DNA of 64,000 nt. Origin: a virus. Where the stretch lies: IMG/VR virus record IMGVR_UViG_3300045600_000078, positions 1-64,000 of that record. One strand, written 5' to 3'. The translations under genes and the position numbers were made by a program. Under the pieces are notes generated by a model, which did no database searches, had not been told where the DNA came from, and was given only the letters and a program-made list of their open reading frames with translations. Within the stretch, counting starts at the first letter, position 1. Every line of letters starts with the position of its first letter. Below, in pieces: positions 6,931 through 29,824 of the stretch.

Positions 6931-6967
6931 GTTAAGAGTCTAACACGGACTCTTAACTTTTATATTT
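6931..6967 (+). terminator. Terminator hairpin, conserved-loop class
   Basis: GTTAAGAGTC [TAACACG] GACTCTTAAC followed by TTTTATATTT. Confidence 0.65.
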
Positions 6968-6992
6968 ATTAACGTTAAAAGGAGTTATGCCA

Positions 6993-7331
6993 ATGGACCC
7001 TGTTTATGTTAAATTTAACGGTAGTGACTCTTTTAAAGGCGTTTCTAACAAAGAATTTGAAGCGCGTAGAACTGCAAAGACTATAGTGTATACCACTTTG
7101 GTGTTTCTTAACTCTGATAAGAGTACAAGAACCGTAATACTATTTTCTGACAAAGATATTTTGGATTTTAATGACACGGAGTGTCTCTCACCGATTGATC
7201 AATTGGCGGCTTCTTATTTTTTGTATGTTACGAGCCTTACTGGAGCAGTATATTACAAATTTGGAAGCTATTATTGTGATAGCTATAGTCCAGAGATCTT
7301 GCTATTAGCAGGCCCATTTTCGCATAAATAG
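6993..7331 (+). CDS. Hypothetical protein (112 aa)
   Basis: Second ATG chosen because GGAG lies 8 nt upstream. The 3' end contains promoter-motif copy 3. Confidence 0.5.
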   Translation: MDPVYVKFNGSDSFKGVSNKEFEARRTAKTIVYTTLVFLNSDKSTRTVILFSDKDILDFNDTECLSPIDQLAASYFLYVTSLTGAVYYKFGSYYCDSYSPEILLLAGPFSHK

Positions 7332-7347
7332 CATGGGTTATAATGAA
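7319..7347 (+). promoter_or_regulatory. Tripartite promoter-like motif, copy 3
   Basis: TTCGCA taaatag CAT gggt TATAAT GAA; overlaps the stop codon of the upstream gene. Confidence 0.55.
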
Positions 7348-7373
7348 GGTAAAAACCTATGAAAGGAGTAGAT

Positions 7374-7505
7374 ATGATTATTATCTGTGCATTGGCTCTT
7401 CTCGGGCTTTTGGTAGTAATCGGCGGTGTCCAAATTTTGGCGGTCACTTGGCCGATTCTGCTGATAGCTGTAGGGATCAATGGGCTTATTAAGAAATTTA
7501 ATTGA
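7374..7505 (+). CDS. Small two-TM membrane protein (43 aa, not in ORF track)
   Basis: Own translation MIIICALALLGLLVVIGGVQILAVTWPILLIAVGINGLIKKFN. RBS AAAGGAG. Flanked by a motif promoter and a conserved-loop hairpin. Confidence 0.5.
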   Translation: MIIICALALLGLLVVIGGVQILAVTWPILLIAVGINGLIKKFN

Positions 7506-7528
7506 TATTTCTTATGGGCAAAGCCTTT

Positions 7529-7560
7529 AAAGGAGGGGTCCTAACAAGGATTCTTCCTTT
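7529..7560 (+). terminator. Terminator hairpin, conserved-loop class
   Basis: AAAGGAGGGGTC [CTAACAAG] GATTCTTCCTTT. Three G.U pairs mean it folds only as + strand RNA. Confidence 0.55.
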
Positions 7561-7589
7561 TTCGCAGGTATGGCATTCTCTATAATGAG
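7561..7589 (+). promoter_or_regulatory. Tripartite promoter-like motif, copy 4
   Basis: TTCGCA ggtatgg CAT tctc TATAAT GAG. Confidence 0.6.
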
Positions 7590-7618
7590 ATCTATACCAA
7601 TTTTTGAAAGGAGTTACT

Positions 7619-7807
7619 ATGGATAGATTCGGAGAAAAGGTTATATTTGTCATTGGACATGCTGCTCTGTTCGAGGTTGGGGCTGCTTGCGAAATAGTGT
7701 CTGCTATAGGAGACTATGCCGCACGGACGCTTCCGAAGGTTCAGAAAGCATATCATGACGCATTTGACCCAGATCCAGAGTCAGAAGAGTCTTCTTCAGA
7801 AGAGTAG
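7619..7807 (+). CDS. Small protein with hydrophobic N-half and acidic tail (62 aa)
   Basis: RBS AAAGGAG 5 nt upstream of ATG 7619. Confidence 0.55.
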   Translation: MDRFGEKVIFVIGHAALFEVGAACEIVSAIGDYAARTLPKVQKAYHDAFDPDPESEESSSEE

Positions 7808-7817
7808 ATTCTCAAAG

Positions 7818-7849
7818 GCTATGAATTCTCACAAGGATTCATAGCTTTT
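7818..7849 (+). terminator. Terminator hairpin, conserved-loop class
   Basis: GCTATGAAT [TCTCACAAGG] ATTCATAGC followed by TTTT. Confidence 0.6.
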
Positions 7850-7876
7850 CGCAGGCATAACATCTTCTATAATGAG
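7848..7876 (+). promoter_or_regulatory. Tripartite promoter-like motif, copy 5
   Basis: TTCGCA ggcataa CAT cttc TATAAT GAG. Confidence 0.6.
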
Positions 7877-7905
7877 GGTTAAAACTACGACGAAAGGAAG
7901 ATATT

Positions 7906-8184: not shown

Positions 8185-8195
8185 CCCCCTAAAAA

Positions 8196-8233
8196 GGTAA
8201 GAAGTCTAACAAGGCTTCTTGCCTTTTATATTT
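8196..8233 (+). terminator. Terminator hairpin, conserved-loop class
   Basis: GGTAAGAAG [TCTAACAAGG] CTTCTTGCC followed by TTTTATATTT. Confidence 0.65.
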
Positions 8234-8262: not shown

Positions 8263-8287
8263 AGTAACTATTAAGAAAGGAGTTATT

Positions 8288-8455: not shown

Positions 8456-8465
8456 TTACTTTAAA

Positions 8466-8497
8466 ACTAAGAAGTTAACATTCCTTCTTAGTTTTTG
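8466..8497 (+). terminator. Terminator hairpin (loop TTAACATTC)
   Basis: ACTAAGAAG [TTAACATTC] CTTCTTAGT followed by TTTT. Confidence 0.6.
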
Positions 8498-8526
8498 CAT
8501 CCTTGCAACAAGTCTATTTATATTTA

Positions 8527-8555
8527 TTCGCGTCGTTTGCATTCCATCATATGAG
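8527..8555 (+). promoter_or_regulatory. Tripartite promoter-like motif, copy 7 (drives the non-coding cassette)
   Basis: TTCGCG tcgtttg CAT tcca TCATAT GAG. Confidence 0.45.
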
Positions 8556-8765
8556 AGGAAGAGGTGGGTGAAAAGGCTGTTTACAGCTGAATGTAACCAA
8601 CATAAACTAGTAATAGTAATCGTCTAATGGTAGGACACCGGGTAACCGGAGACGCAGTAGCTTAGTCTGAAAAACGAAAAGCGCCTAGTTTTGTGTGGAG
8701 ATGACTTCGGTTTGAACTGTGCTTAATTAGGAGAAGTTCGAAGCCTGCATCCTCTCTTATTTTTT
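8556..8765 (+). ncRNA. Candidate ~200-nt structured non-coding RNA containing a tRNA-Glu-derived D-arm block
   Basis: No ORF between the motif promoter and the U-tract. 5' GAGAGGA pairs with 3' TCCTCTC just before TTATTTTTT. Contains a CCGG-GTAA-CCGG (GNRA) hairpin and a C-TTCG-G hairpin. ATCGTCTAATGGTAGGAC nearly matches the D-arm of the tRNA-Glu at 21315. Confidence 0.45.
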
Positions 8766-8792
8766 CGCATGAACAGCATACTCTATAATGAA
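8764..8792 (+). promoter_or_regulatory. Tripartite promoter-like motif, copy 8
   Basis: TTCGCA tgaacag CAT actc TATAAT GAA. Confidence 0.6.
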
Positions 8793-8820
8793 GGGTTAAC
8801 CACTATGGAGGGGGTTTGCT

Positions 8821-9090: not shown

Positions 9091-9100
9091 TCCTTCAAAG

Positions 9101-9131
9101 TCTAGAGGTCTAACAAGGCTTCTAGATTTTT
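9101..9131 (+). terminator. Terminator hairpin, conserved-loop class
   Basis: TCTAGAGGTC [TAACAA] GGCTTCTAGA followed by TTTTT (two G.U pairs). Confidence 0.65.
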
Positions 9132-9158
9132 CGCATATTTGGCATCCCCTATAACGAA
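9130..9158 (+). promoter_or_regulatory. Tripartite promoter-like motif, copy 9
   Basis: TTCGCA tatttgg CAT cccc TATAAC GAA. Confidence 0.55.
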
Positions 9159-9620: not shown

Positions 9621-9676
9621 GAGGCGATAACGCAAGAAGTATCCAACTGATATTTTAGATGGCTACTTCTACGAAA

Positions 9677-9715
9677 GAAGTCAGGAGTTCTAACAAGGAC
9701 TCTTGGCTTCTTTTT
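9677..9715 (+). terminator. Terminator hairpin, conserved-loop class
   Basis: GAAGTCAGGAGT [TCTAACAAGG] ACTCTTGGCTTC followed by TTTTT. Confidence 0.65.
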
Positions 9716-9716: not shown

Positions 9717-9745
9717 TTCGCAGTTTCTACATGTACTATAATGAC
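9717..9745 (+). promoter_or_regulatory. Tripartite promoter-like motif, copy 11
   Basis: TTCGCA gtttcta CAT gtac TATAAT GAC. Confidence 0.6.
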
Positions 9746-9933: not shown

Positions 9934-9948
9934 TGACCAAGGTCAAAA

Positions 9949-9985
9949 GGTAAGAAGTCTACAAGGCTTCTCACCTTTTATATTT
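9949..9985 (+). terminator. Terminator hairpin, conserved-loop class
   Basis: GGTAAGAAG [TCTACAAGG] CTTCTCACC followed by TTTTATATTT. Confidence 0.6.
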
Positions 9986-10012
9986 CGCACACATAGCATC
10001 GTCTATAATGAG
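9984..10012 (+). promoter_or_regulatory. Tripartite promoter-like motif, copy 12
   Basis: TTCGCA cacatag CAT cgtc TATAAT GAG. Confidence 0.6.
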
Positions 10013-10235: not shown

Positions 10236-10240
10236 AAAGA

Positions 10241-10280
10241 GGTCAGAGATCTAAACAAGGTCTCTGGCCTTTTATATTTT
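10241..10280 (+). terminator. Terminator hairpin, conserved-loop class
   Basis: GGTCAGAGA [TCTAAACAAGG] TCTCTGGCC followed by TTTTATATTTT. Confidence 0.65.
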
Positions 10281-10307: not shown

Positions 10308-10353
10308 AGTATTAAGTTTGGCAGATACAGAACTGTCATATTTAGAGAGTCAC

Positions 10354-10388
10354 TAACAATGATTCTAAGTTTTTTTTATTTCGTATAA
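10354..10388 (+). terminator. Leader hairpin + T8 run between promoter copy 13 and gene 10398
   Basis: AGAGTC [ACTAACAAT] GATTCT followed by AAGTTTTTTTT. Confidence 0.4.
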
Positions 10389-11968: not shown

Positions 11969-11981
11969 TTTCCCCTCTCAG

Positions 11982-12017
11982 GGCAGGAGTCCACACGGAC
12001 TCTTGCCTTTTATTTTT
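11982..12017 (+). terminator. Terminator hairpin (loop CACACG)
   Basis: GGCAGGAGTC [CACACG] GACTCTTGCC followed by TTTTATTTTT. Confidence 0.65.
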
Positions 12018-13734: not shown

Positions 13735-13807
13735 GGGCTCTTGGCGCAACGGTTAGCGCGGAGGACTCATAATCCTTAGGTTACAGGTTCAAATCCTGTA
13801 GGGCCCA
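13735..13807 (+). tRNA. tRNA with CAU anticodon (elongator Met or Ile2-lysidine type)
   Basis: Manual cloverleaf: GGGCTCT/AGGGCCC acceptor, GCGC D-stem, anticodon loop CTCATAA, T-arm ACAGG-TTCAAAT-CCTGT. No encoded CCA and no initiator features. Confidence 0.9.
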
Positions 13808-13847
13808 CTAAGGGTATTTTTACAAACTTCTATGAAGAGAGGTTTTT

Positions 13848-14141
13848 ATGAAGATTAAATCTATATTTAATAGACTAGTAAATCATCCGGTGAGTAAGTA
13901 TTGTGATACCCCGGCTTTAGAAAAGCTCGACAAAGCATTCTTGTTTAACGATTCTGAAATTGAGGCCATGGAGTCTCTTTATATTTCTTTGGATCGAATT
14001 GATTGGGACTGCGCCAGGGTACTTTCTGAAAGCCAGTCTGAAGAAGCTAAAGATTTAGCTAAGAAAATTCTATATATTCTTAATGGAAAAGAAGAATCAA
14101 TTCTTCATAACGAAAAAGAAGACCTTTCAATAGACGAATAA
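13848..14141 (+). CDS. Hypothetical protein (97 aa)
   Basis: RBS AGAGAGG. Confidence 0.5.
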   Translation: MKIKSIFNRLVNHPVSKYCDTPALEKLDKAFLFNDSEIEAMESLYISLDRIDWDCARVLSESQSEEAKDLAKKILYILNGKEESILHNEKEDLSIDE

Positions 14142-14261
14142 TTTATAGTTGGTGCCACCTTTCAACATGTGTGGTCAAATGTCCAGTAAGGAGCGACGGT
14201 AGGCCGGACACTACTGAAGCATAGAGGAAACAGCCAACGTTATATTTTAAGGAAGGCAATT

Positions 14262-14708
14262 ATGTCTTATGATGTATTCTCAAAAGATGATCTAAGTTCA
14301 ATTAACAACATGTCAAAAGAAGAGCTTTTAGAAGCCCATAAACGTATTGATGGGGTAGAACATTCTGGAAACGATTTGGAAGCCATTGTAGACAGTTACA
14401 TTTGTCTGGTTAAGGATCTTATTTCCGCGAAAAAAGAGGTAATTGATTTAATAAAGACTGAGCATGGGAGTTTCTCGGTCCCTCTTGATGCGGACGGCAT
14501 TCCTTGCTATCCAGGTGAAGAAATGCGTGACGACGCTGGAAACATATTTGTTTGCCTTGGACTAGGCTTTCAGAACGAAAACCAGCCAGAGATAACTGAG
14601 CTATATTGGCGAGAGAACAATGGATTCGGTAAACTAGTTATTAGCACGGCGGCTATTTGTCATCATATTTCAAATGAGCAAGCTTCTAAAACGGAAGAAC
14701 AAAAGTAA
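14262..14708 (+). CDS. Hypothetical protein, CYxGD-domain paralog 2
   Basis: LDADGIPCYPGEEMRDDAGNIFVCLGLG; RBS AAGGAAGG. Confidence 0.55.
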   Translation: MSYDVFSKDDLSSINNMSKEELLEAHKRIDGVEHSGNDLEAIVDSYICLVKDLISAKKEVIDLIKTEHGSFSVPLDADGIPCYPGEEMRDDAGNIFVCLGLGFQNENQPEITELYWRENNGFGKLVISTAAICHHISNEQASKTEEQK

Positions 14709-14734
14709 TAAAAACAGGGCAAGGGGAGCTTTTT

Positions 14735-15241
14735 ATGGATATTCTAGATGCCGATGGTGTATCATGCTATATTGGTGATTCAGTATTTACCGATGACGGC
14801 GAAGAATTTGATATTTCAGAAATATTTATTAGAGATCGTAGACCAACGTCTATTCGATCTAAGAACGGAAAAATTAAAGCAAACGCAGATACCGTGCACC
14901 ACATGTCAAAGGGCATGAGAATTCTATATTTGTCTCCGTTAGACTATCTTTCTCTTAGCGAAGAAGACCAACGTCAATTTACTGATGATGTCCAGGAAGC
15001 TTATGATAAAATCGCAGATCGATATTTCGGGATCGATGATTCGTTACAGGAATCGACTAAACAAATAGCCAAACCTCCTGCGGAAGATAAATCAAATAAA
15101 AGTCGTTCTGATAAACTGAAGGATCGCAATGCTGAGATTGTTAAAGACTATGCTGAAGGATATTCTTACGCGGAGCTCATGAAAAAGTATTCTCTTTCTG
15201 AGCCATCTATTAGCACTATTATTAGAAAGGCACAACAATGA
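14735..15241 (+). CDS. CYxGD-domain paralog 3 with C-terminal HTH
   Basis: LDADGVSCYIGDSVFTDDGEEFDISEIF; C-terminus YSYAELMKKYSLSEPSISTIIRKA resembles sigma-r4/HTH. Confidence 0.55.
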   Translation: MDILDADGVSCYIGDSVFTDDGEEFDISEIFIRDRRPTSIRSKNGKIKANADTVHHMSKGMRILYLSPLDYLSLSEEDQRQFTDDVQEAYDKIADRYFGIDDSLQESTKQIAKPPAEDKSNKSRSDKLKDRNAEIVKDYAEGYSYAELMKKYSLSEPSISTIIRKAQQ

Positions 15242-15426
15242 ACAACATGCTTTCTTGGCTTACTATATTTCTTGATGGCCTCCTTTTCGGTTCATGTGCC
15301 TATTGGCTCGTGGTTCTTTACTCGAACTTTGGGGGGCTTGCCTGGTTCTATCTGATAATAACTTTTGGCTTTTTTATATTTAGTCTTCTGTGCCTTGTGC
15401 GAGACATTCGAGCTCGAAATGTCTAG
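15238..15426 (+). CDS. Small two-TM membrane protein (62 aa)
   Basis: ATGA overlap with the upstream gene; hydrophobic throughout. Confidence 0.45.
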   Translation: MNNMLSWLTIFLDGLLFGSCAYWLVVLYSNFGGLAWFYLIITFGFFIFSLLCLVRDIRARNV

Positions 15427-15643
15427 TCTACTTCCAAAGGGAATAGGCGTCCCTGATTCGAATGGCGTTATGTGCTATATTGGTGATCAGGTTGTTTCGG
15501 ATAGAGGTGATGTATTTGTCGTTGATGAGTTTAGAATAACTGATGTTGATATTTTGTTCATTTCGTACAACCCTAGCTATGTTAAAATTGTGAACTATCT
15601 GAACGTTACCAAAAAAGATGAACCAGATGGGTGGGGAATGTAG
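15419..15643 (+). CDS. CYxGD-domain paralog 4 (start uncertain)
   Basis: PDSNGVMCYIGDQVVSDRGDVFVVDEF; no clear RBS. Confidence 0.4.
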   Translation: MSSLLPKGIGVPDSNGVMCYIGDQVVSDRGDVFVVDEFRITDVDILFISYNPSYVKIVNYLNVTKKDEPDGWGM

Positions 15644-15659
15644 TCTTCGAGGAGAACCC

Positions 15660-16094
15660 ATGGTAGAAAACGAAGTAGATAAGTGTGAAAACGAAACAGT
15701 AAAGTATGATGTTTACAAGCAGGATCTAGCAATAGATATTCAGCATCGCAATGGGCATACTTATAAAGATCTTGCTCAAGAGTATGACTGCTCGACCGCG
15801 AAGATTGCTTCAGTGTGTAAAAAGGTAGCCCGCCATCGAGCACGAGCTGCTAGAAAGAAACGAATTTATAAAATCGCTAAGAGTAAGGCTTTTAGTAAAG
15901 CCCAGATGGCAAAAGATTACTTCATCGACGAGAAACTTCTTGTCGAGATCATTCAAGAGCAGGACGTAGTTGCCAAGTATCTTGATCATGTTCCAGTAAA
16001 CGTTATTTTGCATCACTATCATCTCTCATTAGATGACTTTGAGCGTATCCTGTATCTGAATGTGGTAACTTCATATTTTATCAGCGGATCTTGA
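15660..16094 (+). CDS. Putative HTH DNA-binding protein (144 aa)
   Basis: GAGGAG 5 nt upstream of ATG 15660; HTYKDLAQEYDCSTAKIASVCKKV is HTH-like. Confidence 0.5.
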   Translation: MVENEVDKCENETVKYDVYKQDLAIDIQHRNGHTYKDLAQEYDCSTAKIASVCKKVARHRARAARKKRIYKIAKSKAFSKAQMAKDYFIDEKLLVEIIQEQDVVAKYLDHVPVNVILHHYHLSLDDFERILYLNVVTSYFISGS

Positions 16095-16097
16095 TTA

Positions 16098-16126
16098 TCC
16101 GCACGAATAGCATCCCCCCTAATGGA
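16098..16126 (+). promoter_or_regulatory. Tripartite promoter-like motif, copy 16 (weaker)
   Basis: TCCGCA cgaatag CAT cccc CCTAAT GGA. Confidence 0.4.
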
Positions 16127-16217
16127 AAGGTAAATGTTTAACAACACAATGTTAAGATCGGAAATGATTCCGAGTTTACTTACCATCAAAATTTTTATAT
16201 TTTAGAAAGGAGGAGCC

Positions 16218-16571
16218 ATGGATTCTATACTTTTGTATGTGTGCGGTACTTTTATATTGTTCTTTCTTATTAATCTTTCAATCCGAGAAACCATACGTTT
16301 TTATGTTGAAACAATGACCGACAGGAAATCCGGTGTCCCCGGAAAAGATTATGGCCATTGCTCAGAATGCTATTATCGAAGTGATCCAATTTATCGTCGG
16401 TTTGGTGTTTTGTATCTTTGCCAAAACCGAGATTCATCATATTTCGGAGAGCCTTGCCAGACCCAGGCCGTAGGATGTGAGGGGCATTTTAAGCAAAAGC
16501 CTACGGAGACTCCAGATTTCAATTGGGATTATCTTCCCTTTACAGATGATTCAAAAGAAAAGAACGACTGA
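16218..16571 (+). CDS. Membrane-anchored Cys-rich protein (117 aa)
   Basis: RBS AAGGAGGAG; N-terminal TM; HCSECYY...C..C motifs. Confidence 0.5.
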   Translation: MDSILLYVCGTFILFFLINLSIRETIRFYVETMTDRKSGVPGKDYGHCSECYYRSDPIYRRFGVLYLCQNRDSSYFGEPCQTQAVGCEGHFKQKPTETPDFNWDYLPFTDDSKEKND

Positions 16572-16587
16572 CTTTAGTTATATTTAT

Positions 16588-16671
16588 GGGGGCGTGGCGG
16601 AACGGCAGACGCGGGAGACTTAAAATCTTTTGTCGCAAGACGTGTGGGTTCGAATCCCACCGCCCCTACCA
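16588..16671 (+). tRNA. tRNA-Leu(UAA), type II, CCA encoded
   Basis: GGGGGCG/CGCCCCT acceptor (G1.U72), anticodon loop CTTAAAA, 13-nt variable arm, T-arm GTGGG-TTCGAAT-CCCAC, then ACCA. Confidence 0.9.
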
Positions 16672-16680
16672 ACTATTTTG

Positions 16681-16706
16681 ACTCTGTTAACAGAGTTTAT
16701 ATTTTT
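16681..16706 (+). terminator. Terminator hairpin after tRNA-Leu
   Basis: ACTCTG TTAA CAGAGT followed by TTATATTTTT. Confidence 0.5.
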
Positions 16707-16734
16707 AAACATTAAAGTCTATACTGGAGGAATC

Positions 16735-17085
16735 ATGAACGTTGGGTATACGCCGTTTTCTAATCATGATACGTTTATCGCTCGGGTAGCTCATACCAAG
16801 CCTGGGTATTTTCAATGGTGCACGATTTACCCACAAAACGATGGAACAGCTATATTTGAAACCAGAGAAGATGGGGCCAGAACTCAGATTAGAGTTCCTG
16901 TGAATTCGGTTAAGAATATTTTCTCAATCTCTTCTGAGTTGTTTAAGGCTTCCATTCGGCGTCTGGAACTTGAAGACCTTGACCCTGTAGAGTCATCAGA
17001 TATTTTGACTTGGAAACAGGTAAATAACAAAAAGCATATTTCAGACATGATTCCTTTTGGTCATAGATTCATAACTATGTGGTAA
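16735..17085 (+). CDS. Hypothetical protein (116 aa)
   Basis: TGGAGG 5 nt upstream of ATG 16735. The track start at 16630 lies inside tRNA-Leu. Confidence 0.5.
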   Translation: MNVGYTPFSNHDTFIARVAHTKPGYFQWCTIYPQNDGTAIFETREDGARTQIRVPVNSVKNIFSISSELFKASIRRLELEDLDPVESSDILTWKQVNNKKHISDMIPFGHRFITMW

Positions 17086-17097
17086 TGTGGTTTTACT

Positions 17098-17127
17098 GAG
17101 AAGAGAAACCTCTTCTCTTTTATATTT
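17098..17127 (+). terminator. Intrinsic terminator
   Basis: GAGAAGAG aaac CTCTTCTC followed by TTTTATATTT. Confidence 0.6.
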
Positions 17128-17156
17128 GAAAAGAGAGCGTTGAAAGGAGCACTATT

Positions 17157-17252
17157 ATGAATTGTGGCAAGTATGGTATCTTTACTGCTGGTGTTTGCTT
17201 TATGGTCGGTGCTTATGCTTGGGTGTGCTTTTACGCAGTAGATCATCGATAG
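17157..17252 (+). CDS. Micro membrane protein (31 aa, not in ORF track)
   Basis: Own translation MNCGKYGIFTAGVCFMVGAYAWVCFYAVDHR; RBS AAAGGAG; bracketed by two terminators. Confidence 0.3.
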   Translation: MNCGKYGIFTAGVCFMVGAYAWVCFYAVDHR

Positions 17253-17262
17253 AATAGTAATT

Positions 17263-17297
17263 GGAGGGGTCGAATTATAGGCCCCTCCTTTTATATT
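17263..17297 (+). terminator. Intrinsic terminator
   Basis: GGAGGGG tcgaattatagg CCCCTCC followed by TTTTATATT. Confidence 0.6.
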
Positions 17298-17313
17298 ACA
17301 AAAAGGAGATTTT

Positions 17314-17799
17314 ATGGGCAGCCCTGTTAGCAAGAACATTAACTTTATTAAAAAACCAGCTATGATTATTTCAGGTGTCGTGCTCATTACTATTTATACC
17401 GGAGCTATTTGGTGGGTTTCTCGTAAGCAAGCTATTCAATTCTGTGCATCGATGTTTACTGAGATTATGAACCAGTATTTGCCCACGAAAGATACTGGTT
17501 CCGGAATAGATAACGCTAAGTCAAACGAACTATCTGAAGAGGATAAAGATATTATTAATAGCTTCTCTTTTCCTCTGTTTCGTGAGAAAAAAGATGCCGA
17601 TCGTCTTCTTAAAGCTTGCAAAGATTATATTTCTATTTACGGTGTGGTCACTATTGGCGACATCTATAACATTCTTGGCGACGATGCCCCGTACGAAGCC
17701 TTCTGCTATGGATGGACACAAAACAACTTGTTTATGGTGAGTACCAAGCCAAATGGCTATTACTTTGTTGATGCCGGGGATCCTTCTTACATTGATTAA
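17314..17799 (+). CDS. N-terminally anchored hypothetical protein (161 aa)
   Basis: RBS AAAGGAG; TM MIISGVVLITIYTGAIWWV. Confidence 0.55.
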   Translation: MGSPVSKNINFIKKPAMIISGVVLITIYTGAIWWVSRKQAIQFCASMFTEIMNQYLPTKDTGSGIDNAKSNELSEEDKDIINSFSFPLFREKKDADRLLKACKDYISIYGVVTIGDIYNILGDDAPYEAFCYGWTQNNLFMVSTKPNGYYFVDAGDPSYID

Positions 17800-17810
17800 G
17801 GAGTTTAGGA

Positions 17811-18158
17811 ATGGCATACGTATATTTTGCAAAGACTGAGTGCAACAAAGTCCTTCCAGAACCCTATAATGAAGTAACTCACCATATTGTGATTGATAGT
17901 GACCGCCGCATTAAGATCGAGGCAATCTCATATTCTGATAAAGATCCTTCAAGCATCGACATTCACATCGGGCCAAATGAAGAAGTAGTTGTTGTATACA
18001 GCCTTCTTAATGACGAAGTAATGCGCGCCCATGGAACAGACATACTGTGTTCTGGGTATACTGACATGCTTCATATTTGCAAAGAGTATTCAACAGAGAT
18101 CGATGACGCAGTTAATGCCTGGTATAATCGGTTCTATTACAAAAAAGATGGGCGATAA
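17811..18158 (+). CDS. Hypothetical protein (115 aa); its 3' end is duplicated at 18798-18882
   Basis: RBS AAGGAG. Confidence 0.55.
   Translation: MAYVYFAKTECNKVLPEPYNEVTHHIVIDSDRRIKIEAISYSDKDPSSIDIHIGPNEEVVVVYSLLNDEVMRAHGTDILCSGYTDMLHICKEYSTEIDDAVNAWYNRFYYKKDGR
18066..18152 (+). repeat. Direct repeat, left copy (coding: C-terminus of 17811..18158)
   Basis: About 80% identical to 18798-18882; the 23-nt core cgcagttaatgcctggtataatc is identical. Confidence 0.8.
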
Positions 18159-18159
18159 C

Positions 18160-18780
18160 ATGAAACATAAAAACAATTCTTATTCACGTCCTAGCATTAA
18201 GTTTGGATATACTATGATGAAACCATTCCCGTTCAATTATCTTTACATTATTCCAGGAAGAACTTCCATATTTACGACTGGAAATGGAAAGTTCTACAAT
18301 CTTGGAAAGTTCTTAAGAGTTGACAAAAACATTAATCCTGATTCTGGCTCAGAGTCTGTTCAATCCGGAATTATATTTGAAAAGACGGTGGAGGATACTC
18401 TCTTCGAAGGCTACAGTGCCCAAAACGAGTTGACAGATGCTATCCTCGGTATTGATCAGATAATTGTAAATGGAGACTTTACCAAGGTTATATTTAAGGA
18501 TGGCACCTCGTCATCCGTTCGCCGAAAGCATGCTGATCCAAATAAGCCAGGGGATACAGAGGACAAAGACGATCGTGAAGTCGCAGTGCTGTATTGTCTT
18601 ATGGAGCACGCTATTCCTGGATTCAAGACCTCAATTCGCAAGAAGATTGCTCTTGCTGAGGAAAAGAAATGTATTTCTGACAAAAATAGGCTTGATCGTT
18701 CAGCAAGAAAGGCCGCTAAAAAGGATGTTTCTAAAAAGAGTAAAAAGAACTATACAAAAACTAAGAATGTCCACCGATAA
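18160..18780 (+). CDS. Hypothetical protein with basic C-terminal tail (206 aa); flanked by ~85-bp direct repeats
   Basis: ATG 18160 lies right after the upstream stop. Segment VIFKDGTSSSVRRKHADP..EVAVLYCLMEHAIPGF resembles a common phage domain of unknown function. Confidence 0.55.
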   Translation: MKHKNNSYSRPSIKFGYTMMKPFPFNYLYIIPGRTSIFTTGNGKFYNLGKFLRVDKNINPDSGSESVQSGIIFEKTVEDTLFEGYSAQNELTDAILGIDQIIVNGDFTKVIFKDGTSSSVRRKHADPNKPGDTEDKDDREVAVLYCLMEHAIPGFKTSIRKKIALAEEKKCISDKNRLDRSARKAAKKDVSKKSKKNYTKTKNVHR

Positions 18781-18797
18781 AGATAAACAATACTTCG

Positions 18798-18882
18798 ATG
18801 CTTCATATTCTTAAAAGTATTCGACTAAGATCGATTCCGCAGTTAATGCCTGGTATAATCAGTTTTATCATAAAATAGATGG
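18798..18882 (+). repeat. Direct repeat, right copy (decayed, in-frame stop)
   Basis: Reads DASYS*KYSTKIDSAVNAWYNQFYHKIDGG against MLHICKEYSTEIDDAVNAWYNRFYYKKDGR. Confidence 0.8.
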
Positions 18883-18891
18883 AGGGTACAG

Positions 18892-19317
18892 ATGATTAAG
18901 ATGACGAACAAGCAAGATAATGACAACGAGTCGTATATCAATCAGCTTGAGCACATGGTAAATATACTCAAAGCGCAACTCAATGATGCCCGGATGCCAG
19001 ACTACGCCGACGAGCCGATGCTAACTAAGCACGAGATGTACGACAGGATCCAGGTGCTTCTTGCCGAACGAGACAAGCTTGAGAAAGACCTCGTCTCTCT
19101 TGTCAGTTCATATTCCGACTCATGGGATAAGGTCGATGCGGACTTAGAGAAGGGTGCCTGCGCGTACTTTTCCCACTCCGGAAAAGACTGTCACGGGTGT
19201 CCTGCATATTGCACTGAAAAGTGCTCGTGCGAGGGATACATGGCTCGTGACCTCGTGCGTCGCTGCAAGGAACTCGCTGGGGTTACGGACGATTCCCCAT
19301 GTTCTTCTAAAAACTAA
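18892..19317 (+). CDS. Coiled-coil protein with Cys-rich C-terminus (141 aa)
   Basis: RBS GGAGGG; CHGCPAYCTEKCSCEGY. Confidence 0.55.
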   Translation: MIKMTNKQDNDNESYINQLEHMVNILKAQLNDARMPDYADEPMLTKHEMYDRIQVLLAERDKLEKDLVSLVSSYSDSWDKVDADLEKGACAYFSHSGKDCHGCPAYCTEKCSCEGYMARDLVRRCKELAGVTDDSPCSSKN

Positions 19318-19326
19318 GGATTTTTT

Positions 19327-20010
19327 ATGATACGTATAGACAATACCACCGAGTATGGATTCTGCGAAGCCATCCGAGGTATGCGAAACCCCATGAATAG
19401 TTGGGATAAGAGCGATACAAAAATATCAGAAAAAACATATACGGTTAATAGTGAAACGTATATGCATACACAAATACCAACCTGGCCATCAATAGGACCA
19501 AAAGATATAGATCTCATGCTTCGTCTTCGTAAAGCGGGGGCCGACCATCGAAAGTATCTTCGTATGATCGTTGTGTGGACTGATATTACTGCCCCGCTAT
19601 ATTGGTGGAAAGAGTTCGACACTTATAAGGTCGGAACCGTCGCTGATAGCTGTAGCACAATGCATAAGATCGCGGCCAAAGAGTTTACCATGGATGACTT
19701 TAGTCACGATCATCTTGCCCCATCTACAGTTATTAAATCAGATACCAAGAGTCCGATTGAGGTGCTTTCTGATACTATATCGGTTCTTAATAACTCGAGA
19801 AAAAAGTATCTTGAGACCAAGGACAAGGCCTATTGGTGGGAGATGATTCAGCTTCTTCCTTCAAGCTACAATCAGAATCGAACTGTTGAGCTGAACTACG
19901 AGGTTCTTACAAACATATATTTTGCTCGTAAGAATCATAAGCTTGACGAGTGGCATGTGTTCTGTGATTGGATTGAGAAGCTTCCATATTCTCAGATCAT
20001 TACTCTTTAA
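19327..20010 (+). CDS. ThyX-like (flavin-dependent thymidylate synthase-like) protein with a divergent signature motif
   Basis: GADHRKYLRMIVVWTDITAPLYWWKEFDTYKVGTVADSCSTMH parallels the ThyX core GH.S.LEH..F.F.I.G.SR....E..RHR..S....S.RY, but the RHR motif is replaced. Confidence 0.4.
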   Translation: MIRIDNTTEYGFCEAIRGMRNPMNSWDKSDTKISEKTYTVNSETYMHTQIPTWPSIGPKDIDLMLRLRKAGADHRKYLRMIVVWTDITAPLYWWKEFDTYKVGTVADSCSTMHKIAAKEFTMDDFSHDHLAPSTVIKSDTKSPIEVLSDTISVLNNSRKKYLETKDKAYWWEMIQLLPSSYNQNRTVELNYEVLTNIYFARKNHKLDEWHVFCDWIEKLPYSQIITL

Positions 20011-20048
20011 TAATTTTGGCAGTTCATAGTCAGGAGAAGAGGGTTGCT

Positions 20049-20345
20049 ATGAGCAAAATTAGATCTTCGGTTAAGTCTCGGAGACTTGTGCGTAGGAACC
20101 GAACGTGGTTCCGCGCTCTATATCTTACTGGTATGACCAGTACGGAACTTAAACAGATTGTCGATGGCTACGGCTTATTCGAATCGGCTATTTCTAAAGT
20201 AAAGAAGTCTCTTTTTGATTTCGGTGTTGAGTTAATGGATTACTGCAATCCTATATTTAGCAATCTGGAAGTCACTCTATCCGAGATCTCTGAAGACGAT
20301 ATACGTCAAGCAACCGATTCATTAAACAAGGAAGCGAGGATCTAA
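20049..20345 (+). CDS. Hypothetical basic protein (98 aa)
   Basis: RBS AGAGGG 5 nt upstream of the internal ATG. Confidence 0.45.
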   Translation: MSKIRSSVKSRRLVRRNRTWFRALYLTGMTSTELKQIVDGYGLFESAISKVKKSLFDFGVELMDYCNPIFSNLEVTLSEISEDDIRQATDSLNKEARI

Positions 20346-20683
20346 TGCCCATATTTCCGCCATTTGACACATTCCGCAAGACAATCATCTCTATAAAGCC
20401 ATCCGATGGAGAACGGTACGATAGGCTCATTGATATTCGTAGTAATGACGACCGAATTCTTGTTCGCGGAAGAGCCAGCAGAACTTGTTCCGATTCGGCT
20501 ATCAGTATTTCTGTAGATAAGAATGTTTATATTTACAGGCTCGATACTGGTGCCATCTATGACATGCAGCATCCGAGAGTAAATGCTGAGCTAAAGGGGA
20601 AGCTTGCTGCTCGCGTTAACACCGCTCGTATTGCTTGGTACTGCCGCGACTTCATCACACCTGCTGACGCCTCAGTCAAGTAA
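20345..20683 (+). CDS. Hypothetical protein (112 aa)
   Basis: TAATG overlap with the upstream gene. Confidence 0.5.
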   Translation: MPIFPPFDTFRKTIISIKPSDGERYDRLIDIRSNDDRILVRGRASRTCSDSAISISVDKNVYIYRLDTGAIYDMQHPRVNAELKGKLAARVNTARIAWYCRDFITPADASVK

Positions 20684-20696
20684 TTTTATATTCTAG

Positions 20697-20773
20697 GCCT
20701 CGGTAACTCAATTGGTTAGAGTAGTGGACTTTTAATCCAAAGGTTGTGGGTTCGAATCCCACCCGGAGCACCA
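20697..20773 (+). tRNA. tRNA-Lys(UUU) copy 1, CCA encoded, C3.A70 acceptor mismatch
   Basis: GCCTCGG/CCGGAGC acceptor, anticodon loop CTTTTAA, T-arm GTGGG-TTCGAAT-CCCAC. Confidence 0.85.
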
Positions 20774-20798
20774 TCTTCGTTTCACAAGTTATATTTAG

Positions 20799-20875
20799 GC
20801 CTCGGTAACTCAATTGGTTAGAGTAGTGGACTTTTAATCCAAAGGTTGTGGGTTCGAATCCCACCCGGGGCACCA
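20799..20875 (+). tRNA. tRNA-Lys(UUU) copy 2, CCA encoded
   Basis: Identical to copy 1 except G70 restores the C3-G70 pair (CCGGGGC). Confidence 0.9.
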
Positions 20876-20919
20876 TATAACTCTTTATAGCATCTGTGTA
20901 TCTTCGTGAAAGGATTGGC

Positions 20920-21231
20920 ATGATCATAGAGCAAGAGTACGGTACGTGCCCCGTTTGCGGGCATAAGGATAGCCTTGTAAACGAGGCTGGAGACGGAACT
21001 AAGCTAAGAACCTGTCGCAATGTCGCGTGCCCCATGTTTTATATTCCGGTTGATGCTGATCTAGATGTGGTTAAGAGTCTTGAGGCTGTGGGGTATGAGT
21101 TTCGTTCGGAATGCGGGGATTCATATTTTTTGGTAAAGGATGATCATGGTTTTCTCTTGGCTAAGTCTATAGTTCCAGTCGACGAGACCCCGGATTTTGA
21201 TAACATGCAGATTGAGTTCGATGGCAAGTAG
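20920..21231 (+). CDS. Zinc-ribbon protein (103 aa)
   Basis: RBS GAAAGGA; CPVCGH...CRNVAC. Confidence 0.5.
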   Translation: MIIEQEYGTCPVCGHKDSLVNEAGDGTKLRTCRNVACPMFYIPVDADLDVVKSLEAVGYEFRSECGDSYFLVKDDHGFLLAKSIVPVDETPDFDNMQIEFDGK

Positions 21232-21314
21232 TTATATTCAAGTCACTGAGCCAATTATAAGCAACTATAAGACAGCACTTTCTTTTTAAAAACACTACTA
21301 AACACTTTATATTT

Positions 21315-21389
21315 GGCATCATCGTCTAATGGTTAGGACGAGACCCTTTCAAGGTCTAGATGCGAGTTCAATTCTCACTGATGCTACCA
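21315..21389 (+). tRNA. tRNA-Glu(UUC), CCA encoded
   Basis: GGCATCA/TGATGCT acceptor (G1.U72), D-arm GTCT-AATGGTTA-GGAC, anticodon loop CTTTCAA. The T-arm has one C.A mismatch. Confidence 0.8.
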
Positions 21390-26707: not shown

Positions 26708-26750
26708 GGGGATGGGGCTCAAACATGGGCCCTGTCCCTTTCGCTTTTCT
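26708..26750 (+). terminator. Intrinsic terminator
   Basis: GGGATGGGGC tcaaacatgg GCCCTGTCCC followed by TTTCGCTTTT. Confidence 0.5.
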
Positions 26751-26773
26751 CTATGAGACGAAAGGTTATATTC

Positions 26774-26968
26774 ATGAGTATCCAGGATCCTTCTCGTTCT
26801 ACCAGCATGAACCTTCACACTATTGCTAAGAACCTTTACGATATTTCTCGTCAGCTTCGCCTCATGAATGATAAGCTTACTCGAATCCTTCCGAATGATG
26901 AGAAGGCCTCCGAGGCTAATTCCATGGCAGAGGAGGCTATTGATGGCAACAACACCGATGCCGAGTAA
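26774..26968 (+). CDS. Hypothetical protein (64 aa)
   Basis: GAAAGG upstream of the internal ATG. Confidence 0.4.
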   Translation: MSIQDPSRSTSMNLHTIAKNLYDISRQLRLMNDKLTRILPNDEKASEANSMAEEAIDGNNTDAE

Positions 26969-27602
26969 AGAAGAGCTCCCTGGGAACTCCCATGCTGAGA
27001 GGGATGCTCGTGAGGAAGCAGCGAATGCCCTTGCCGCCAAGCGTCAGCTTCAGGGAACCGTTAATCCTGAGAAGCAATCCCTCGGTAAGAAGATTGTCTC
27101 AACTTTTGTCAAGGATGACATGAACGAGGTCAAGGAATACGTCTGGTACGACGTTGTGCTGCCTAAGGTTAAGGAGATTATATCTGAAACTATCTCCAAT
27201 ACTGTCGACATGGCTCTGTATGGCGAGCGTCGTTCTCGCAGCAACATAAATCGACGTGGCGGTAGCTCGTATGTGTCATATTCTTCTCAGTACCGTTCTA
27301 CGAACGACTCCCGTCCACAGTATGCGAGTGGATCAAGAGACCGTAGAGACGGATACAATCTGAGTAATCTTATATTTGACACACGGGTTGACGCTGAGAG
27401 TGTTCTCGGTGATCTCTGTGATCTTGTTGAGGATTACAAGATGGCTAGTGTTGCTGACTTCTACAAGTTCGCTGGTATGGAGGAGCAGTCTACATTCATG
27501 GATCGTCGTTGGGGTTGGTATGATCTTGGAAACGCTCGAGTCGTTCGTACTCGAGATGGATATTCTATTGATATGCCTAGGCCCCAGCAGCTCGACGTGT
27601 AA
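26943..27602 (+). CDS. Hypothetical protein (219 aa)
   Basis: Start at the internal ATG overlapping the upstream gene. C-terminal domain ...VADFYKFAGMEEQSTFMDRRWGWYDLGNARVVRTRDGYSIDMPRP. Confidence 0.55.
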   Translation: MATTPMPSKEELPGNSHAERDAREEAANALAAKRQLQGTVNPEKQSLGKKIVSTFVKDDMNEVKEYVWYDVVLPKVKEIISETISNTVDMALYGERRSRSNINRRGGSSYVSYSSQYRSTNDSRPQYASGSRDRRDGYNLSNLIFDTRVDAESVLGDLCDLVEDYKMASVADFYKFAGMEEQSTFMDRRWGWYDLGNARVVRTRDGYSIDMPRPQQLDV

Positions 27603-27728
27603 GACGTTATATTCTAATTATAGGTCAACTATACTTATAAAAAGCAAACCCCACCTTAGAACGGCTCTCAGAGCCTCTCAGGGCTATATTTGACGGGGTA
27701 TTATGCTATAGACGAAAGGAATGTTTAG

Positions 27729-28682
27729 ATGGAACTCTCAACTGGTACCTTTTACAATAAGATTTCATCGTTGCCGTTCGGCAATCAGCTTGCTAAGGCA
27801 AGCGTGAAGGTTCAGGCCAAGAGCCCTGAGATTCTTCTGGCTACGGGAATTGTTAGCATCATTGGCGGAACTGTTTTGGCGTGCAAGGCCACAGTTTCTG
27901 CTCAGGAGGTGCTTGCTGAGCATCAGAAGATGCGTAATGATGTCGACGAGGCGGCTCGTCTTGGTGCAAACAACGAGGTTTCATATTCTGAGGAAGATCG
28001 TAAGAAGGATCTCGTAACTGTCTATGCTAAGACTAGTGTGGGTCTGGCTAAGACGTATGCTCCTGCTGCGGCGCTTATTGGCCTCGGTATATTTGCTCTT
28101 CTGGCATCGCATGGGATCATGGCTAAGCGTAATGTGGCTATTGTCGCAGCCTACGATACGGTCAAGACTGGTTTTGATGCTTATCGCAAGCGTGTTGTCG
28201 AGGAATTTGGTGACGAGGTTGACAAGAAGCTCCGCTTTGGTCTTCAGGACCAGAAGGTTACCGAGGTCGTCACGGACGAGGACGGCAAGGAGCATAAGAC
28301 GAAGGTCACGAAGACGGCCTTTGACCCCAACGAGGTCTCAACGTATGCTCGGTGGTTCAGTGCTGAGACGTCTCGTGAGTTCTGGAATCGAAACCCGTCC
28401 ATGAACCTTACGACTCTTAAGGCCAAGGAGTCATATTTCAATAATGTTCTTAGTGCTCGTGGTTTTGTCTTCCTCAATGAGGTGTATGATGGTCTTGGAT
28501 TCCCGATGACCCCTGAGGGACAGCAGGTTGGCTGGATGAAGAACGATGATGGAGACAACTTCATTGACTTCGGAATTCTTGAGAGCCGAAACATGCTTGC
28601 TGTGAACGGTCAGGATCCTGACGGAATCAACGCCTATCTGCTTGACTTCAATGTTGATGGTCCTATCATGTATAAGATTTGA
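27729..28682 (+). CDS. Two-TM phage protein, paralog of 25551..26366
   Basis: See 25551; RBS AAAGGAA. Confidence 0.6.
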   Translation: MELSTGTFYNKISSLPFGNQLAKASVKVQAKSPEILLATGIVSIIGGTVLACKATVSAQEVLAEHQKMRNDVDEAARLGANNEVSYSEEDRKKDLVTVYAKTSVGLAKTYAPAAALIGLGIFALLASHGIMAKRNVAIVAAYDTVKTGFDAYRKRVVEEFGDEVDKKLRFGLQDQKVTEVVTDEDGKEHKTKVTKTAFDPNEVSTYARWFSAETSREFWNRNPSMNLTTLKAKESYFNNVLSARGFVFLNEVYDGLGFPMTPEGQQVGWMKNDDGDNFIDFGILESRNMLAVNGQDPDGINAYLLDFNVDGPIMYKI

Positions 28683-28793
28683 AGATTAGGGTTAAATGCT
28701 CCTGCGAACTTTGGCAACTTCCAGGATGACCTTGACTATGCTAATGCTATGAACAACATTGATATTTAGTAGGACTGATTGGAGTTGAGCTAG

Positions 28794-29756
28794 ATGAACA
28801 AGAAGACCGTTATATGCGGTGTGGTTGCATTCGGGGTCGGTTTTGTAGTTGGCGCGATCGCTGATGCATATTCTGAGCCTATTCAGCAGACAGTTGAAGC
28901 TACTCTTATCAAGCTGCATATTAAGAAGGATACTCCTGATGGGTCGGAGAACTCTGATGAGCACAAAGACGTGCAGGTAGATGGGCAAACGGATCTTGTC
29001 TGGGAGAGCGAAGATGATATTCCTCCCGAGATTAAAGCTCTTGACAATTGTTCCCCAGAAGATGACAAGTATTTCGAGGGAAAGAAGTTTGTCTTAGCTG
29101 ATGACGCTCATAAGCCAGATCCTAGTGATATTGCTGATGAGATTGCTAAGTATAAGCATGCCACCGAGGGATACGCTACGGCTACTCCTGAGAGGCATCC
29201 TGAGACAATTGCTGATGATGACTCCGAGGACATGGATGATTCAGAGGACGACACGCCAATTGAGTACCAGAATGAGCCTGCTGAGGCTCGTGTAGCTCGA
29301 TTCATGAATCGTGTCATGAACGATGACAGTGACGAGGATAATGGCCCCGATATTTCCGAAGACGATGACTCTTCTGAGCTTGAAGAGCACAATGTCTTTG
29401 ACGAAAATGAGGGTAATGCGATTGAGGACCTGGGGGATGCTGCTGAGAAGGCAGCTTCTGAGAGTGATCTTGACGATGACGACATGTTTGAGTTCATCGA
29501 TGATTCTGGATGGAACTCTGACGATGGTTACGATAAGATAACGCTTATGTACTTCCCCGATGATGATATTCTTGTCGCTTCAAAGTATGAGAACCCGATT
29601 AACCCGAACTATATGATCGGTGACGATGCTTACAACGAGCTTCTGAAGGGCGAATCGGATACTATCATGGTGTGTAACAACAATCTGGGTGCAGATATTA
29701 AGATTAATGTTAATTATGACATTAATTATTACGATTGGTCTGCCGATAACGATTAA
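28794..29756 (+). CDS. Membrane-anchored, extremely acidic protein (320 aa)
   Basis: N-terminal TM VICGVVAFGVGFVVGAIA, then about 280 aa very rich in D/E (DDSEDMDDSEDD, DDDSSELEE, SDLDDDDMFEF). Confidence 0.6.
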   Translation: MNKKTVICGVVAFGVGFVVGAIADAYSEPIQQTVEATLIKLHIKKDTPDGSENSDEHKDVQVDGQTDLVWESEDDIPPEIKALDNCSPEDDKYFEGKKFVLADDAHKPDPSDIADEIAKYKHATEGYATATPERHPETIADDDSEDMDDSEDDTPIEYQNEPAEARVARFMNRVMNDDSDEDNGPDISEDDDSSELEEHNVFDENEGNAIEDLGDAAEKAASESDLDDDDMFEFIDDSGWNSDDGYDKITLMYFPDDDILVASKYENPINPNYMIGDDAYNELLKGESDTIMVCNNNLGADIKINVNYDINYYDWSADND

Positions 29757-29793
29757 AAACATATTTGTATGGAGGTGAAGTGCCAAACGACTA

Positions 29794-29824
29794 GAGGGTC
29801 CTAACATGGACCCTCACGTTTTGC
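29794..29824 (+). terminator. Hairpin, conserved-loop class; the loop contains the ATG of ORF 29806
   Basis: GAGGGTC [CTAACATG] GACCCTC followed by ACGTTTT. Confidence 0.45.

Follow-up and report, generated by a model that had tools for sequence, protein, structure and literature searches.

The boxB hairpins of lambdoid nut sites are read by N proteins and carry different loops in different phages, GAAAA in lambda and GACAA in P22, and the stoperators of mycobacteriophage L5 and of cluster A phages are duplex DNA sites bound by repressor that do not lie in RNA hairpins. In the intercistronic hairpins of T4, Tuerk et al. in 1988 reportedly described C(UUCG)G loops on varied stems, as a structural property and not as a protein site. 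Close in design to the elements studied here are the promoter-early stem-loop (PeSL) cassettes of T4-like myoviruses, in which a stem-loop terminator is fused to an early promoter (PMC2839356, PMC4122927); what is conserved in them is the promoter together with the stem base (GN-loop-CN, A3-4G3-loop-C3T3-4), and the loop is taken as free, no conservation of it being reported (PMC4122927). The boxB loop of phi21, CUAACC, folds as a UAAC tetraloop flanked by C-C (PMC12550061, PDB 1NYB). Here, we have examined a family of hairpins in 64,000 nt of viral DNA (IMG/VR record IMGVR_UViG_3300045600_000078, positions 1 to 64,000; the window hereafter), for which an earlier note, made from the letters alone, had proposed that at least 12 terminator hairpins share a conserved loop core. 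This feature is a variant of known composite terminator-promoter cassettes and of conserved terminator loop motifs, with a fixed tip on a stem that covaries.

We are highly confident, as far as sequence comparison can tell, that these hairpins form one family of Rho-independent terminators, each closing a short, mostly single-gene early transcription unit and many fused to the promoter of the next unit, and that purifying selection has kept their covarying lower stem and fixed apical Y-C-U/AACA/A-G-G since before the split from relatives with ~50-57% primase identity. Thirteen strong + strand hairpins, spanning positions 6928-29815, carry the tip (T/C)CT-AACA-AGG or a one-step variant of it, and 10 of these 13 lie within 6.9-13.4 kb. 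They are listed here together with two weaker sites:

6928..6960, + strand: terminator hairpin, tip GTCT-AACAC-GGAC, partners shifted by one with the letters kept; tail TTTTATATTT; 18 nt past the stop of open reading frame (ORF) 6629-6910; 37.5 bits
7532..7557, + strand: terminator hairpin (site 7529), tip CCT-AACA-AGG; its T-tract leads into the TTCGCA-N14-TATAAT motif at 7561-7586
7816..7847, + strand: terminator hairpin (site 7818), tip TCT-CACA-AGG; then a promoter-like motif at 7848-7873
8192..8227, + strand: terminator hairpin (site 8196), 16 bp, tip TCT-AACA-AGG; tail TTTTATATTT; near-duplicate of 9946-9978; 51.7 bits
9098..9129, + strand: terminator hairpin (site 9101), tip TCT-AACA-AGG; then a promoter-like motif at 9130-9155
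9674..9713, + strand: terminator hairpin (site 9677), 18 bp, tip TCT-AACA-AGG; then a promoter-like motif at 9717-9742
9946..9978, + strand: terminator hairpin (site 9949), tip TCT-ACA-AGG with a triloop; then a promoter-like motif at 9984-10009
10237..10273, + strand: terminator hairpin (site 10241), tip TCT-AAACA-AGG; tail TTTTATATTTTCGCA
11981..12008, + strand: terminator hairpin (site 11980, CCACACGG), tip TCC-ACAC-GGA; absent from the earlier list; 33.6 bits
13350..13385, + strand: terminator hairpin (site 13354), 16 bp, tip TCT-AACA-AGG; tail TTTTATATTT; top match of the family model, 52.9 bits
24101..24128, + strand: terminator hairpin, tip TCT-GTAACA-AGG with a hexaloop, found again in relatives as CCTGTAACA(A/G)GG
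26708..26739, + strand: terminator hairpin (CTCAAACATGG), tip CTCA-AACA-TGGG; absent from the earlier list; orthologous by position to the terminator that follows the first DUF6353 gene of ~50 relatives
29794..29815, + strand: hairpin without a proper T-tract, tip CCT-AACAT-GG; covers the Shine-Dalgarno sequence (SD) and ATG of ORF 29806-30381; 28.7 bits
8466..8492, + strand: degenerate copy (8470), loop GTTAACATTC; 9 bp, -8.2 kcal/mol; missed by the family model
10346..10366, + strand: doubtful member (listed earlier as 10354), 7 bp, -5.7 kcal/mol; missed by the covariance model

The count given in the earlier note thus largely stands, since 11 of its 12 sites are strong, although the one at 10354 is weak and those at 11980 and 26708 had been overlooked. 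The core letters that it described as a conserved loop are indeed kept, but some of these letters are paired: in the RNAfold structure an AACA tetraloop is enclosed by T-A, C-G and T.G, so that three conserved base pairs belong to the fixed part. Loops of 3-6 nt occur among the variants of the tip (CACA, ACA, AAACA, ACAC and GTAACA, with A, C or T before GG), and at 6931 and 11980 the letters of the tip are retained despite shifted pairing partners. Instead of being all different, as had been stated, the stems are related through one family consensus, GAG-N-YCU-AACA-AGG-N'-CUC, with a purine-rich 5′ arm and a pyrimidine-rich 3′ arm of low complexity, and two pairs of hairpins (8196 with 9949, and 10241 with 13354) are near-identical over ~45 nt. 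Likewise, the tail TTTTATATTT, said to follow almost all copies, stands behind no more than 5 of the 12 sites in that list; TTTT(T)CGCA or some other T-run takes its place at the rest, except at 29794, which lacks a proper T-tract. In 13 of 15 hairpins the stem contains 1-4 G.U pairs, and most of the hairpins are more stable as + strand than as - strand RNA, by 5-12 kcal/mol. Both observations bear out the claims that the G.U pairs favour + strand RNA and that the structures are selected at the RNA level. Strong + strand terminators without the tip are found at 5575-5612, 17098-17117, 17263-17288, ~35280-35323 and ~40320-40358. Because two tip-less terminators carry the TTTTATATT tail, this tail is a general terminator feature of the window phage and not a trait of the tip family.

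The 13 family hairpins have stems of 8-18 bp with folding energies of -14 to -26 kcal/mol. A T-tract (at least 4-6 T) follows 12 of them, 29794 being the exception, and all lie 2-53 nt downstream of + strand stop codons. On account of this T-tract and position, which is the anatomy of Rho-independent terminators, they are predicted to be such terminators. We retrieved relatives of the phage through its primase, with 50-57% protein identity to that of the window; some are IMG/VR contigs 55-65 kb long and others are prophages of Faecalibacterium prausnitzii, F. hattorii and F. tardum, with further matches in Lachnospiraceae bacterium 45-P1, Kineothrix, Butyrivibrio, Ruminococcus and Christensenella. 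As control DNA we used unrelated phages, retrieved when the lysin served as query for the early regions of relatives, together with rumen contigs. At the family loci, 36 of 39 distinct tip-bearing hairpins had a strong T-tract; there was one tip-bearing hairpin on the - strand, and 1.57 Mb of controls contained three, all without a T-tract.

Many of the terminators are followed by a promoter-like motif, TTCGCA-N6-RCAT-N4-TATAAT (R = A/G), which is present in eight copies of 26 nt each, with a spacer invariably of 14 nt:

starts 7319, 7561 (..7586), 7848, 8764, 9130, 9717, 9984 and 23736, + strand: copies of the promoter-like motif TTCGCA-N14-TATAAT

At five hairpins (7529, 7818, 9101, 9677 and 9949) the motif starts 0-6 nt downstream, and at 10241 and 13354 a TTCGCA lies farther downstream. 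The same design was found in the relative L028 (53% primase identity; 1615-2340), with the tip CTAACAAGG, a T-tract, TTCGCG-N14-TTTAAT or TATTAT, an SD and an ATG. The succession of hairpin, T-tract and promoter-like motif in both genomes identifies these units as composite terminator-promoter cassettes around single small genes. The 14-nt spacer compares with the canonical 17-nt spacing of -35 and -10 boxes, and TTCGCA-N14-TATAAT may mark an unusual class of early promoters in these Clostridia phages. One copy of the motif ends a 365-nt segment without a convincing ORF (8456-8820), part of which looks tRNA-like by eye; ARAGORN and Rfam gave no match for a structured RNA in this segment, and its folding z-score was -0.9.

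The comparison with PeSL cassettes is instructive in both directions. As in those, the copies are many, they lie in hyperplastic regions of small ORFans, the motif differs among phage lineages, and at five window hairpins and in L028 the stem-loop directly precedes what looks like a promoter. Unlike in PeSL, it is the tip that is fixed and the stem that covaries; the phages are siphophage-like and belong to Clostridia, whereas PeSL are found in T4-like phages of Gram-negatives; and the promoter-like motif is TTCGCA-N14-TATAAT in place of TTGACA-N17-TATAAT.

The conservation of the tip could be measured both within the window and across genomes. The exact 9-mer CTAACAAGG occurs seven times in the window, five of them at hairpin tips, and with at most one mismatch it gives 32 matches compared with 12.6 +/- 3.3 in shuffled sequence (none of 100 shuffles reached 32). 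When the window copies were aligned on the motif, information content was highest at the tip, at the CTCT of the 3′ arm and at the T-tract, and fell to background level in the flanks. Very recent duplication, which the earlier note had named among the findings that would refute it and which would leave flanks as conserved as the loop, can be excluded because the flanks are unconserved and the genes adjoining the hairpins show no paralogy among themselves; nor is there DNA similarity to the relatives that share the tip. Indeed, an AACA-type tip is present in six relatives without DNA similarity to the window (L013, L027, L028, L035, L228 and L255) whose primases are only 51-57% identical, and the tip thus predates the split from these relatives or has been exchanged since. 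The two near-identical pairs of hairpins speak for chance or for very recent duplication without selection. Shuffled sequence, unconserved flanks, the lack of gene paralogy, the sharing of the tip across ~50% primase divergence and the lack of matches in controls all argue against this account, which we regard as already refuted.

For the comparison across genomes, hairpins were defined by T-tail and free energy alone. Tips of the form ACA[ACT]GG were found in 46 of the 689 + strand hairpins of primase relatives compared with 0 of 185 on the - strand, and in the controls in 1 of 489 hairpins of unrelated phages and 0 of 175 of rumen contigs. With a covariance model built from the 13 window hairpins, the 1.58 Mb of relatives yielded 75 matches (E <=0.05), all but one on the + strand (74), whereas 1.02 Mb of DNA from unrelated phages yielded none. 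We then aligned 47 distinct family members to the model; they were selected with a model trained on the window, so that conservation of the tip is partly built into this set while covariation of the stem is not. In the covariation analysis of these members, which the earlier note had suggested, the stems do covary: pairing is kept in 91.5% of cells, both partners change in 13 of the 15 pairs, and the covariation score of 0.569 exceeds both that of shuffles (0.272, with 0 of 500 reaching it) and that of slid partners (0.11-0.21). Of the three apical pairs, 14-26 is always CG or UG, 15-25 is CG in 45 of the 47 members and 16-24 is UA in 33; they show almost no compensatory change, although the pair next to them takes five pair types. 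The tip is therefore held as sequence and not as pairing, and the description of a conserved loop on variable stems is upheld in this form. No Rfam family matches the hairpins at E values up to 5. Taken together, these sequence comparisons show that the fixed apical module of 10 nt is confined to this phage family, in which it is old.

Sister lineages have other tips at the same place. The terminator ~400-500 nt past the first DUF6353 gene, located by its flanking genes and not by the motif, has lineage-specific tips: CCTGTAACA(A/G)GG, TCTGAAACATGG and CCGAAAACAAGG in relatives, CTCAAACATGG in the window, and (N)NGA-GAAA-TC(N)N in Faecalibacterium phages. Besides this site, the Faecalibacterium phages carry the GAAA-type tip at 6-9 further terminators per 24 kb; as NNGA-GAAA-TCNN, it reaches 6-11 copies per 24 kb among L238-L244 and L047-L080, which are Faecalibacterium prophages and relatives from IMG/VR. 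In 91 distinct pairs of near-identical orthologous hairpins of the GAAA type, the sites that differed were 1.4% in the loop, 1.8% in the apical pairs, 1.5% in the T-tract, 6.7% in the lower stem and 4-5% in the flanks, so that the loop evolves 3-4 times more slowly than the flanks; in hairpins of neither type from the same genomes, the loop differed at 7.9% of sites, equal to the flanks. Since the GAAA loop is held at 1.4% while other loops drift like the flanks, terminator tips in this phage family are under purifying selection, and in the sister lineage the loop sequence of the alternative module is demonstrably constrained.

Part of this pattern could also arise from mobile cassettes of the PeSL type, whose short recombining repeats would shuffle ORFans, in which case the likeness of the hairpins would reflect spread or homogenisation at the DNA level and not an RNA function of the tip. 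The composite terminator-promoter architecture fits such an origin, as does the setting, because the copies are concentrated in an ORFan-rich region between lysin and primase that extends over 26 kb in the window compared with ~10 kb in relatives; unrelated genes lie between the cassettes, and for nearly all ORFs in 4.3-25.5 kb neither a homologue among 120 related loci nor a paralogue within the window was detected. Furthermore, the hairpin at 29794 seems to have arrived with an inserted gene, whole hairpins are nearly identical in some lineages (the 24-nt hairpin GAGCTTACGAGAAATCGTAGGCTC is present in 6 copies in L061 and L238), and 10.6% of 274 breakpoints between close relatives fall <=40 nt from a terminator compared with 5.0% of random positions, in genome pairs that are not independent and do not include the window, for which the collections searched gave no close relative. 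This enrichment is modest, however, and expected of any intergenic feature, and the link to indels, which PeSL cassettes would share, is only weakly seen here. Homogenisation should in addition copy the stems, yet those of the window differ, a crossover inside a hairpin would produce mismatched arms, and ten conserved bases are too short for homologous recombination. Shuffling of cassettes explains how the hairpins spread and not why the tip evolves slowly at orthologous sites, and we consider it improbable as the reason for their likeness.

The reason for which the apical module is kept is a separate matter from its conservation. We tentatively favour, with somewhat less than even confidence, a trans-acting RNA-binding factor that reads the tip of the terminator and thereby controls termination or 3′-end stability, over a purely structural reason in cis. 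Such a factor, a phage or host RNA-binding protein, would recognize the apical module on the RNA and would coordinately tune either the efficiency of the terminators, and so read-through into later genes, or the stability of early mRNA 3′-ends; the Faecalibacterium sister lineages would use another label (GA-GAAA-UC), like the differences in boxB loops among lambdoid phages. The resemblance to boxB includes lineage-specific loop labels on short hairpins, one class being GAAA-like and one containing CUAAC, and the 24101-type tip CCU-G[UAAC]A-AGG can be drawn like the C[UAAC]C hexaloop of phi21. In contrast, boxB is not a terminator, has no U-tract and is found 1-2 times per genome beside boxA, whereas here there are 13 copies, each a predicted terminator; the main tip UCU[AACA]AGG cannot take the UAAC register of phi21, and no conserved N-like protein was found.

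The proposal that the tip is a recognition element for a protein or RNA is backed by its conservation and by selection at the RNA level, but not by the search for a reader. Several results weigh against it. No RNA-binding, antiterminator or nuclease domain was detected in the ~60 window proteins searched, which did not include the 2198-aa ORF 54423-61019, and among the protein families encoded up to 10 kb to either side of the primase none follows the distribution of the tip, the best being present in 56% of tip-bearing loci and 3% of others. The sole arginine-rich candidate, ORF 20049-20345, is an ORFan. The tip tolerates the loop variants given above and A, C or T before GG, which speaks for recognition of low stringency; the genome also has terminators of equal strength that lack the tip (5575, 17098, 17263, ~35280 and ~40320); and the sister clade has a common GNRA tetraloop as its tip, which a structural reason would suffice to explain. 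Finally, the AACA type is represented by only eight close orthologue pairs, too few for its substitution rate; close relatives were sought for this measurement, and the best IMG/VR, metagenome and genome matches had only 48-57% protein identity. As to ORF 20049-20345 itself, it encodes 98 aa with an N-terminal arginine-rich stretch, SKIRSSVKSRRLVRRNRTWFRAL, reminiscent of arginine-rich RNA-binding motifs, and has no Pfam match and no homologue in related loci, including those that share the tip.

A structural reason acting only in cis is a serious possibility, to which we give somewhat less weight than to a trans-acting reader. The tip would help the terminator itself with no trans factor, either as an unrecognised stable or fast-folding motif or as a cap that sets the register, in which three pyrimidines followed by three purines, of opposite polarity to the arms, would prevent slippage of the low-complexity arms during co-transcriptional folding. 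The arms are indeed low-complexity purine and pyrimidine runs, the tip is almost confined to hairpins with a T-tract and hence tied to termination, and a few compensatory flips at the closing pair (AU 2, CG 1) indicate that pairing matters there. The GAAA of the sister clade, a known stable GNRA loop, is similarly constrained. There is also the T4 precedent, in which C(UUCG)G on varied stems was reportedly explained by exceptional stability, and in view of which the statement that a conserved loop is more than an intrinsic terminator needs was too strong. As in the T4 C(UUCG)G and GNRA hairpins, one short loop with its closing pair recurs on many stems; unlike in T4, the predicted stability is average, the conserved block is 10 nt and not 6, and the letters are kept when the register shifts (6931, 11980), which a purely structural motif does not predict. 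To our knowledge, the tetraloop classes of extra stability (UNCG, GNRA) do not include AACA with U-A, C-G and U.G as its closing pairs. On the same stem, the native tip gives -8.9 kcal/mol compared with -14.6 for a G-C-closed GCC-GAAA-GGC tip, that is, 5.7 weaker, and native TCT tips lie near the median (50th percentile) of 400 random tips with three pairs and a tetraloop, both for free energy and for probability of the minimum free energy structure, under a model that is blind to unmeasured loop bonuses. Moreover, the tip is unused by unrelated phages of similar habitats.

A third possibility, which we find very improbable, is that the asymmetric 10-bp tip is bound as duplex DNA by a phage regulator, in the manner of the L5 stoperators, the inverted repeat being incidental. 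Like stoperators, these are many short asymmetric motifs in short intergenic gaps, oriented with transcription and stopping it, and a cI-like repressor is encoded in some relatives (e.g. L035 35-427, - strand). This single orientation is uninformative, however, because all genes are on the + strand. Contrary to what is known of stoperators, the motif is inseparable from the hairpin, being essentially never found outside a hairpin tip with a T-tract; its distance to the next promoter varies between 11 and 43 nt, and no repressor or integrase was found among the ~60 window proteins searched. In L035, the cI-like gene (- strand) and a Cro-like gene (+ strand) form a divergent helix-turn-helix (HTH) pair (35-801) that opens the early region.

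Other candidates for what reads or explains the tip were considered and rejected. An upstream element of the promoter is inconsistent with the variable distance from the tip to TTCGC (11-43 nt) and with the several copies that have no promoter downstream. In a CsrA/RsmA hairpin the GG should be exposed, whereas here it is paired, and the base that follows it in the 47 family members is G in 22, A in 12, U in 8 and C in 3. A UMAC (phi21-like) fold of the main tip breaks the stem register and can be drawn only for the GTAACA variant, as G[UAAC]A, and a mimic of an anticodon loop (CUAACAA, 7-nt loop) also breaks the register. The integron attC core (RYYYAAC) has neither a GTTRRRY partner nor an integrase, and a sequence complementary to the tip, CCTTGTTAG, occurs only once, by chance, within the primase gene.

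The hairpin at 29794 differs from the others in its position. Its loop holds the ATG of ORF 29806-30381, as the earlier note had pointed out, its 5′ arm holds the SD (GAGGG), and its 3′ arm encodes the first residues. This start-codon hairpin is absent in ~60 homologues of ORF 29806-30381, and for this reason autoregulation of the ORF through the hairpin was rejected. The hairpin probably arrived with the inserted ORF 28794-29756, as a gene-plus-terminator insertion. The product of ORF 28794-29756 has a net charge of -67, which makes it extremely acidic, and nearly all relatives lack it. A broader version of the trans-acting explanation, which we hold to be doubtful as a whole, would make the tip an address label through which a phage or Clostridia-host factor switches the set of early terminators, or the stability of early mRNAs, jointly; the sister lineages would have swapped label and reader, in a series similar to boxB/N that acts directly on terminators, and the 29794 copy would be a translational operator for ORF 29806-30381.

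By its gene content, the 64-kb window looks like the whole genome of a tailed phage, or nearly so, with all called genes on the + strand and strong ribosome-binding sites of the AAAGGAG type. Its genes include the following:

25-1836, + strand: DUF285/LRR protein, lysis/tail group
2500-4071, + strand: GH25+CHAP lysin, lysis/tail group
30697-34716, + strand: DUF5906 primase-like protein, replication group
45329-47089, + strand: large terminase, packaging/head group

Other replication genes encode a single-stranded DNA-binding protein and a helicase, other packaging and head genes a portal and a protease-capsid fusion, and HTH proteins are encoded by ORFs 14735-15241, 15660-16094 and 37600-40314. 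Five tRNA genes (Met-CAT, Leu-TAA, two Lys-TTT and Glu-TTC) are dispersed among early and middle ORFans at 13735-21389, and three proteins around the large terminase gene (44392-45324, 47115-47546 and 47607-48023) have in common a short N-terminal DUF7211 motif. Between the 904-aa HTH protein and a CHAP/ricin protein lies a gene-poor gap of 1.5 kb (40315-41823), with a strong terminator at ~40320-40358 and a - strand hairpin of G8/C8 runs near 41425, which may be a packaging or origin region. Megablast found no match to the window DNA among GenBank phages. The window phage is a siphophage-like phage of Clostridia, of gut or rumen. Many of its relatives are prophages, its early region is 2.5 times longer, and within the family it may represent a derived form, for instance a virulent one.

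It is common to regard intrinsic terminators as generic elements in which the sequence of the loop is free. Here, a defined terminator tip is kept across deep divergence by a large, widespread family of phages and prophages that live in Clostridia of gut and rumen, with Faecalibacterium, Lachnospiraceae and Ruminococcus among the hosts named in genome records; the alternative tips differ from lineage to lineage, and for the GAAA type the loop constraint can be measured. Should a factor read the tip, phages would have a new means of controlling many terminators together, from which orthogonal pairs of terminator and reader could be drawn for use in Firmicutes. Should the reason be structural, current energy models would lack a loop motif that favours termination, namely AACA closed by U-A/C-G. 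In both cases, the covariance model can serve to annotate the early transcription units of these little-studied phages.

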